Shown here: in pieces, positions 59,376-61,059 of the stretch | How the letters are laid out: each line of letters starts with the position of its first letter | Numbering within the stretch: position 1 is the first letter of the stretch | NCBI RefSeq assembly: GCF_057098645.1 | Contig: NZ_CM169472.1 | Strand: one strand, 5' to 3' | DNA length: 64,000 nucleotides | The notes under the pieces: model-generated | What the model was told of the DNA's origin: nothing | The model's input: only the letters and a program-made list of their open reading frames with translations | Database searches by the model: none | Program-made: the position numbers and the translations under genes

Positions 59376-61046
59376 TCATTTTTTCGCTCTCACCGGCATC
59401 CCATTTGCCACAAAATATCCCGCCGTGCTCCTCGGCAGCGCTTCCTGTCCACGAATCATGTCCGCTATTTTCTCGCCAATCATAATTGTCGTGGCGTTCA
59501 AATTCCCGGTGATAATCTGCGGCATAATTGACGCATCCACCACGCGCAGGCCTTCCAGCCCATGCACGCGGCCTTCGCCGTCAACCACGGACATCTCGTC
59601 GTAGCCCATTTTGCAGGTACCGCACGGATGGAAGGCGGTTTCGGCGTGATTACGCACGAACTCATCGAGCTGCTCATCCGTCTGACATTCCGTGCCGGGG
59701 CTGATTTCGCGGCCACGATACTGATCCAGCGCGGGTTGATGCATGATCTCGCGGGTGATGCGAATTGCGTCGCGGAATTCCTGCCAGTCCTGTTCGTGCG
59801 ACATGTAGTTAAACAGAATTGCCGGATGCTGGTGCGGGTCGCGGGATTTAATCCGCACATGCCCACGGCTTGGCGAGCGCATCGATCCGACGTGGCACTG
59901 GAAGCCGTGCTCTTTCACTGCATTCGAGCCGTTATAGTTAATCGCTACTGGCAGGAAATGGTACTGAATATTCGGCCACGCAAATTCCTCTCGGCTGCGA
60001 ATAAATCCGCCTGCTTCAAAGTGGTTGCTGGCACCAACGCCGGTGCCGCCAAACAGCCACTTCGCACCGATTTTCGGCTGATTCCACCACTGCAGGGCAG
60101 GGTAGAGGGAAACCGGTTCTTTGCACTCATATTGCAGATACATCTCCAGATGATCCTGAAGATTTTCGCCGACGCCGGGTAATTCATGCACCAGCGGAAT
60201 ATCAAACTCCGCCAGCAGTTCAGCGCTACCCACGCCGGAACGTTGCAGGATCTGCGGAGAGGCGATCGCACCTGCACATAACAGCACCTCTTTATTCGCT
60301 GTCGCGCGGGTTGGAATGGTGCTATCGCCTTCCAGCCACTCGACGCCTACCGCGCGTTTGCCGTCAAAAATGATGTGATCGGTCATAGCGTGAGTTCGAA
60401 TGGTCAGGTTCGGGCGCGATTTGGCCTGATCGAGATAACCGCGCGCGGTGCTGGCGCGGCGGCCCTGCGGCGTGACGGTGCGATCCATCGGGCCGAAACC
60501 TTCCTGCTGATAACCGTTGAGATCGTCCGTGCGCGGGTAGCCCGCCTGCACGCCCGCTTCAATCATCGCTTCAAACAGCGGATTGACGCCGGGTTTGGAG
60601 GTGGTGACGCTCACCGGGCCGTCGCCGCCGTGGTAGTCGTTCTCGCCCATATCGCGAGTCTCGGCCTTGCGGTAGTAGGGCAGGCAGTCGAGGTAGCTCC
60701 AGTTCTCCAGACCGGGTTCTTGCGCCCAGTTATCGAGATCCAGCGCATTGCCACGGATGTAGCACATGCCGTTGATCAGCGACGATCCACCCAGACCTTT
60801 ACCGCGTCCGCACTCCATGCGGCGGTTATTCATAAACGGTTCAGGTTCCGTCTCGTAAGCCCAGTTGTAGCGTTTACCCTGTAGCGGGAATGCCAGGGCA
60901 GCGGGCATCTGGGTGCGGAAGTCAAAGCGATAGTCCGGGCCGCCCGCTTCAAGCAGCAGCACGGAGGTATTCGGATCTTCAGTCAGACGGGTAGCGAGAA
61001 CGTTGCCGGCTGAGCCGCCACCAATAATGATGTAGTCAAATTGCAA
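59376..61046 (-). CDS. betA: Choline dehydrogenase BetA (556 aa); first codon is TTG
   Basis: ORF track 59376..61091 trimmed; [21 protein letters not shown]... GMC oxidoreductase; aggagg RBS 5 nt upstream of the TTG. Confidence 0.9.
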
Positions 61047-61059
61047 ATAAACCTCCTGG

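Follow-up and report, generated by a model that had tools for sequence, protein, structure and literature searches.

Evidence that TTG is the native initiation codon of betA in Escherichia coli, and its distribution among Enterobacterales

Based on the sequence, population, comparative and cell-free initiation evidence presented here, we conclude with very little residual doubt that the TTG at 61046-61044 on the minus strand is the native initiation codon of betA in the DNA under study, a window of 64,000 nucleotides from contig NZ_CM169472.1 of RefSeq assembly GCF_057098645.1. In the proposed scheme, the perfect Shine-Dalgarno sequence (SD) AGGAGG located 5 nt 5' of this codon would position the 30S subunit, and fMet-tRNA would decode the UUG as codon 1 of a protein beginning Met-Gln-Phe-Asp-Tyr-Ile-Ile-Ile-Gly, in which the GxGxxG motif starts at residue 9. 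The weaker start codon, the maximal SD and the 13-nt gap after the betB stop may together set the output of BetA relative to that of BetB; ribosomes finishing betB may also melt a hairpin that masks the SD and expose it, and betA translation could in this way depend on betB translation. The features concerned are the following, with their basis in brackets where one applies.

61044..61046, minus strand: TTG (UUG) initiation codon of betA (sequence, RefSeq CDS start, conservation, and an INRI-seq peak at the identical K-12 site)
61047..61051, minus strand: 5-nt SD-to-TTG spacer TTTAT (sequence)
61052..61057, minus strand: Shine-Dalgarno AGGAGG of betA, 5 nt 5' of the TTG (sequence)
61047..61059, minus strand: betB-betA intercistronic spacer CCAGGAGGTTTAT, 13 nt (sequence and species comparison)
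61060..61062, minus strand: betB stop codon TAA (sequence, RefSeq annotation)
61052..61100, minus strand: predicted SD-occluding hairpin (MFE and centroid folds in four species)
59376..61046, minus strand: betA CDS, choline dehydrogenase, 556 aa (translation, TIGR01810, Pfam)
61060..62532, minus strand: betB CDS, betaine-aldehyde dehydrogenase, 490 aa, ATG start
62533..62545, minus strand: betI-betB spacer CCGAGGAGACGTG, 13 nt (layout TAA-CC-SD-N5-start, as at the betB-betA junction)
62546..63133, minus strand: betI CDS, first gene of the betIBA operon

Read 5' to 3' on the minus strand, the junction is AAA TTC CAG TCC ATA TTC TAA CC AGGAGG TTTAT TTG CAA TTT GAC TAC ATC ATT ATT GGT GGC GGC TCA GCC GGC AAC, the betB TAA lying 2 nt 5' of the betA SD and 13 nt 5' of the betA TTG. 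The betA reading frame is open in the 5' direction only as far as a second TTG at 61091, within betB, and the stretch from one TTG to the other has neither ATG nor GTG in frame; the first in-frame ATG 3' of the start is codon 47, which is past the GxGxxG FAD motif (residues 9-14). The first-pass annotation of this DNA had described a BetA N-terminus (QFDYIIIG) preceded in frame by TTG, an aggagg SD 5 nt upstream at what we number 61057-61052, and the lack of any in-frame ATG that would keep the conserved N-terminus, and on all three points its reading of the sequence is borne out. As a bare motif, AGGAGG-N5-TTG is statistically unremarkable: it occurs once in the 64-kb window, at the betA site, against 0.38 occurrences expected, and at least one occurrence was found in 30 of 100 shuffles. 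It is meaningful at betA because of where the TTG falls: betB ends 13 nt before it, and position 1 of the BetA and GMC_oxred_N profiles follows 2-3 codons later. The betI-betB junction (62530-62548, minus strand) is also laid out as TAA, CC, a 6-nt SD (GAGGAG), 5 nt and ATG, with a spacer of exactly 13 nt as at betB-betA, and a GTG is found in frame directly before the betB ATG.

To judge from its profile matches, motif, domains and operon context, the protein read from this TTG is the choline dehydrogenase BetA, a member of the GMC oxidoreductase family. It scores 1033.3 bits against the TIGR01810 betA equivalog (cut-off 732.1), residues 4-537 covering profile positions 1-532 of 532, and Pfam places PF00732 (GMC_oxred_N) at residues 3-300 and PF05199 (GMC_oxred_C) at residues 393-524, with the FAD-binding GxGxxG as G9-G-G11-S-A-G14. 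The betI-betB-betA order with a divergent betT is given by the RefSeq annotation of a 100%-identical O145 locus and of K-12, the K-12 arrangement (betT <> betI-betB-betA) being the same as here. K-12 betA (b0311, WP_001159094.1) has the identical junction (TAA, CCAGGAGGTTTAT, TTG CAA TTT GAC), the same 556-aa length and an annotated TTG start, and differs from the present gene by few substitutions. One of these is at residue 10 (61017-61019, minus strand), which is Gly (GGC) here and in O145 and Ala (GCC) in K-12 and all other species examined, so that the FAD motif reads GGGSAG here and GAGSAG in the latter. Downstream of betA, in the annotation transferred from O145 str. RM9872, an island at about 55700-58300 that holds hyxA, hyxR and ipbA (fimX/hbiF, a tyrosine invertase gene) separates betA from ykgH; K-12 has no such hyxA-hyxR-ipbA island at this place, its ykgH coming directly after betA.

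Within E. coli, the TTG is fixed. The window itself is E. coli DNA. Over 401 nt centred on the junction it matches O145 str. RM9872 at 100% identity, and the junction region was found in 5179 of 5426 complete E. coli genomes; it is absent from the other 247, and in 10 places it lies on plasmids. A 33-mer centred on the TTG was matched in 5177 of the 5179 locus-bearing genomes, K-12 derivatives, O157:H7, O104:H4 and Nissle 1917 included. Since megablast needs an exact 28-mer and any 28-mer of the 33-mer spans positions 6-28, each match vouches for an exact 23-nt core made up of SD, spacer, TTG and 9 further nt; this exact SD-TTG core is missing from two of the 5179 genomes, which do have the junction region. 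ATG and GTG versions of the 33-mer gave no match among the 20,395 records of complete E. coli genomes. The junction is identical even in the two sampled alleles that diverge most (92% and 95% identity across the 401 nt); their BetA is of 562 aa, not 556 aa. The RefSeq (PGAP) betA CDS starts at this TTG in O145 RM9872, in K-12 BW25113 and in the two divergent strains. The comparison with reference betA sequences that the first-pass annotation had proposed as a check gives the same TTG in K-12, O157:H7, Nissle and the RefSeq annotations. TTG is the reference state of betA in K-12 and in public annotation, and is in this sense already known and ordinary.

The TTG also extends well beyond E. coli. 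When one genome per species was searched with a degenerate DNA pattern encoding F-D-Y-I-I-[IV]-G-[AG]-G-S-A-G-N, giving at least 120 loci, TTG was found at the homologous codon, among the matches listed, in Enterobacter (four species or MAGs), Lelliottia nimipressuralis, Pseudocitrobacter faecalis, Citrobacter sp. R56, Klebsiella oxytoca and one unclassified MAG; with E. coli, the TTG set comprises at least ten species in at least six genera. All ten TTG-clade species compared have [A/G]GGAGG as SD, and the betB-betA spacer is of 13 nt in nine of them, with two variable positions among the nine, and of 14 nt in K. oxytoca. Again among the matches listed, ATG, mostly as ATG GAA, is present at the homologous codon in Pluralibacter, Kosakonia, Cedecea, Pantoea, Erwinia, Tatumella and Xenorhabdus, and in Pseudomonas and Halomonas betA also starts with ATG, the N-terminus being slightly longer. 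In the seven former genera the start position is homologous, 2 codons before F-D-Y-I-I, with betB just upstream across a short spacer; the spacer sequence is different, and their proteins begin Met-Glu (ATG GAA), whereas that of E. coli begins Met-Gln (TTG CAA). In a neighbour-joining tree of BetB (no bootstrap), the TTG loci form one clade, with the ATG-bearing Pluralibacter as sister. This topology points to a single ancient ATG-to-TTG change, which most likely took place in the common ancestor of the Escherichia-Enterobacter-Lelliottia-Pseudocitrobacter-Citrobacter-Klebsiella bet loci.

An initiating ribosome has been mapped to this codon in vitro, on the identical K-12 region. INRI-seq (PMC9825163) takes translation initiation regions of E. 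coli K-12 as a synthetic pool and records the initiation complexes that retapamulin arrests on them in a cell-free system. For betA (b0311, start 327247, minus strand), Table S2 of that study gives 104.8, 89.4, 84.6, 69.7 and 91.3 CPM, with peaks in all five replicates, and the annotated start is called 'identified' at a threshold of more than 5 CPM in at least two replicates; Table S3, which collects non-annotated start sites, has no betA entry (PMC9825163). The betA oligo carries ...CCAGGAGGTTTATTTGCAATTTGAC and begins at -30, without the 5' arm of the predicted hairpin and without the TTG at 61091. Arrested ribosomes per transcript are about 3.5 times as abundant on the betA region as on the betB ATG region (88/55.6 vs 43/97.3, Tables S2 and S4, PMC9825163), although this is a density and not a rate and can only be indicative. 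Such a load on the isolated region counts against reduced translation from TTG, and the comparison indicates, within the same limit, that the betA TTG with its perfect SD is not a poor initiation site. In vivo, Ribo-RET gave no signal for betA, betB or betI, probably owing to low expression in that growth condition, and the supplements of the TRAINSPOTTER and TetRP datasets (N-termini and start sites) contain no BetA or betA entry.

The first-pass annotation had called the TTG a possible 'genuine non-canonical start'. That it is genuine is upheld by 5177 of the 5179 genomes, by RefSeq and by INRI-seq, but 'non-canonical' overstates the case, as UUG is one of three standard bacterial start codons and opens about 3% of the genes in E. 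coli (bioRxiv 10.1101/063800). Like UUG-initiated E. coli genes in general, betA is SD-led and has a near-cognate codon read by fMet-tRNA, with nothing mechanistically distinctive shown for it; what is particular to betA is the pairing of a weak codon with a perfect 6-nt SD at 5-nt spacing. In reporter assays, initiation from UUG reaches 10-100% of the AUG level (bioRxiv 10.1101/063800).

Why the TTG has persisted is a separate question, and here the explanation that fares best among the alternatives is that the TTG, although native, is neutral to selection: a frozen accident, left by an ancestral ATG-to-TTG change that happened once, was tolerated through the strong SD and has no role in tuning or coupling. 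We consider this a serious contender, if somewhat less than evenly probable. It agrees with a change that took place once, at the root of the clade, and with good initiation in vitro from the isolated region despite the TTG. The ten TTG species agree in the start-codon T and in most spacer positions, and 39 of their 293 four-fold sites (13%) are invariant too; the invariance of the T is suggestive of constraint, but only one site is concerned, and the roughly 13% of neutral sites that do not vary in these species either count in favor of neutrality. Set against neutrality are the observation that neither the more than 5000 E. coli genomes nor the ten species show a return to ATG or GTG, a nucleotide-level constraint that bears on the whole junction and not on the start alone, and a report that GTG and TTG starts give expression 8- to 12-fold below that of ATG, which can be adaptive (PMC11445065).

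The constraint on the junction also shows at synonymous sites. Among the 670 betB and betA codons compared in the ten species (mean synonymous invariance 0.168), the peak is in the last 17-23 codons of betB (61063-61130, minus strand), at 0.58-0.64, and the first 15 codons of betA (61001-61043, minus strand) reach 0.50. Codons 10-25 of betB, near the betB start, are also high (0.56). Five invariant codons in a row, TCC ATC CAG GTT GAG, occupy betB positions -13 to -9 and are part of the 5' arm of the predicted hairpin, which comprises betB codons -13 to -7; the 3' arm would run from the last betB codons through the stop and CC into the GGAGG of the SD. MFE and centroid predictions agree on this hairpin in E. 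coli, Enterobacter, Citrobacter and K. oxytoca (dG -14.8 to -16.9 kcal/mol, z -1.84 to -2.55), though with z values that are modest, at about -2; folding of Pluralibacter, the sole ATG species so treated, does not yield the SD-masking hairpin (z -0.54). A 111-nt fold of the junction is no better than shuffles (z -0.94). No compensatory change was detected in the hairpin by RNAalifold and pair counting, 13 of its 18 pairs never varying, and an Rfam scan of the junction at E<=1 returned no match.

Translational coupling by the unmasking of a sequestered ribosome-binding site is a classical operon mechanism. The betB-betA junction shares with it the short intercistronic gap of coupled cistron pairs, here 13 nt, and a predicted hairpin in which the SD of the second gene is paired with the 3' coding end of the first. 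It departs from the classical case in that the hairpin is without covariation and the isolated betA region initiates alone in vitro, and coupling is known here as a prediction. The strong INRI-seq signal is nevertheless compatible with the hairpin model, because the oligo starts at -30 and is devoid of the 5' arm. A literature search retrieved no paper joining choline dehydrogenase, betaine aldehyde dehydrogenase and translational coupling. On the strength of the folding models and the synonymous-site conservation, hairpin-based coupling of betB and betA is conceivable, if on the doubtful side. The fuller proposal is rather unlikely: that the one ancestral ATG-to-TTG change arrived jointly with the perfect SD and the SD-masking hairpin, and that the three would form a conserved coupling device of the core Enterobacteriaceae, tying BetA synthesis to completed BetB translation and capping the BetA:BetB ratio, with the start codon and the synonymous sites at the 3' end of betB held by selection. 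Were it true, such a cap could serve, for instance, against a toxic build-up of betaine aldehyde.

Whichever of these accounts applies to its maintenance, the assignment of the start to the TTG at 61046-61044 is challenged by two further possibilities of much lower standing. The true betA start could lie elsewhere, either at the TTG at 61091 in betB, which would add 15 aa, or at the ATG of codon 47; we judge this very improbable. The frame is indeed open back to 61091, but no spaced SD precedes that codon and the 15-aa extension falls outside every BetA profile, these beginning at residues 3-4. The ATG-bearing relatives start exactly at the codon homologous to the TTG at 61046, and initiation at codon 47 would remove the GxGxxG FAD motif. 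INRI-seq calls no other betA start, the oligo from -30 being blind to 61091. That the TTG is instead a strain-specific ATG-to-TTG mutation or a sequencing error at 61046 lowering BetA synthesis, as the first-pass annotation had allowed, has in its favor only the general expectation of ATG starts (about 83% of E. coli genes; bioRxiv 10.1101/063800) and is refuted by the same base in 5177 E. coli genomes, by the ATG and GTG 33-mers matching none of the 20,395 records and by TTG in K-12 and five other genera, which leaves it virtually no probability.

With the TTG as the native start, there is nothing unusual about the strain from which the window derives, and no defect in the synthesis of the osmoprotectant glycine betaine is to be inferred. 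Beyond annotation hygiene, the TTG start of betA has little significance. The value of the analysis lies in the documented fixation of TTG in more than 5000 E. coli genomes, in the probable origin of the codon through one change at the root of the Escherichia-Enterobacter-Citrobacter-Klebsiella bet locus, and in the lead that the betB-betA junction may be under nucleotide-level constraint, consistent with translational coupling.

Elsewhere, the window is collinear with O145 RM9872 at 99.8-99.9% identity, apart from indels. A 1.33-kb insertion relative to RM9872, at about 30769-32099, adjoins the ykgM/ykgO/ykgR region and encodes the IS2 repressor TnpA and the IS2 transposase TnpB, both scoring above NCBIfam cut-offs; the window thus does not derive from RM9872 itself. 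At about 55156-55157, some 464 bp of O145 RM9872 are missing from the window, and the RM9872 annotation has an IS3-family transposase and a truncated autotransporter pseudogene close to this site.
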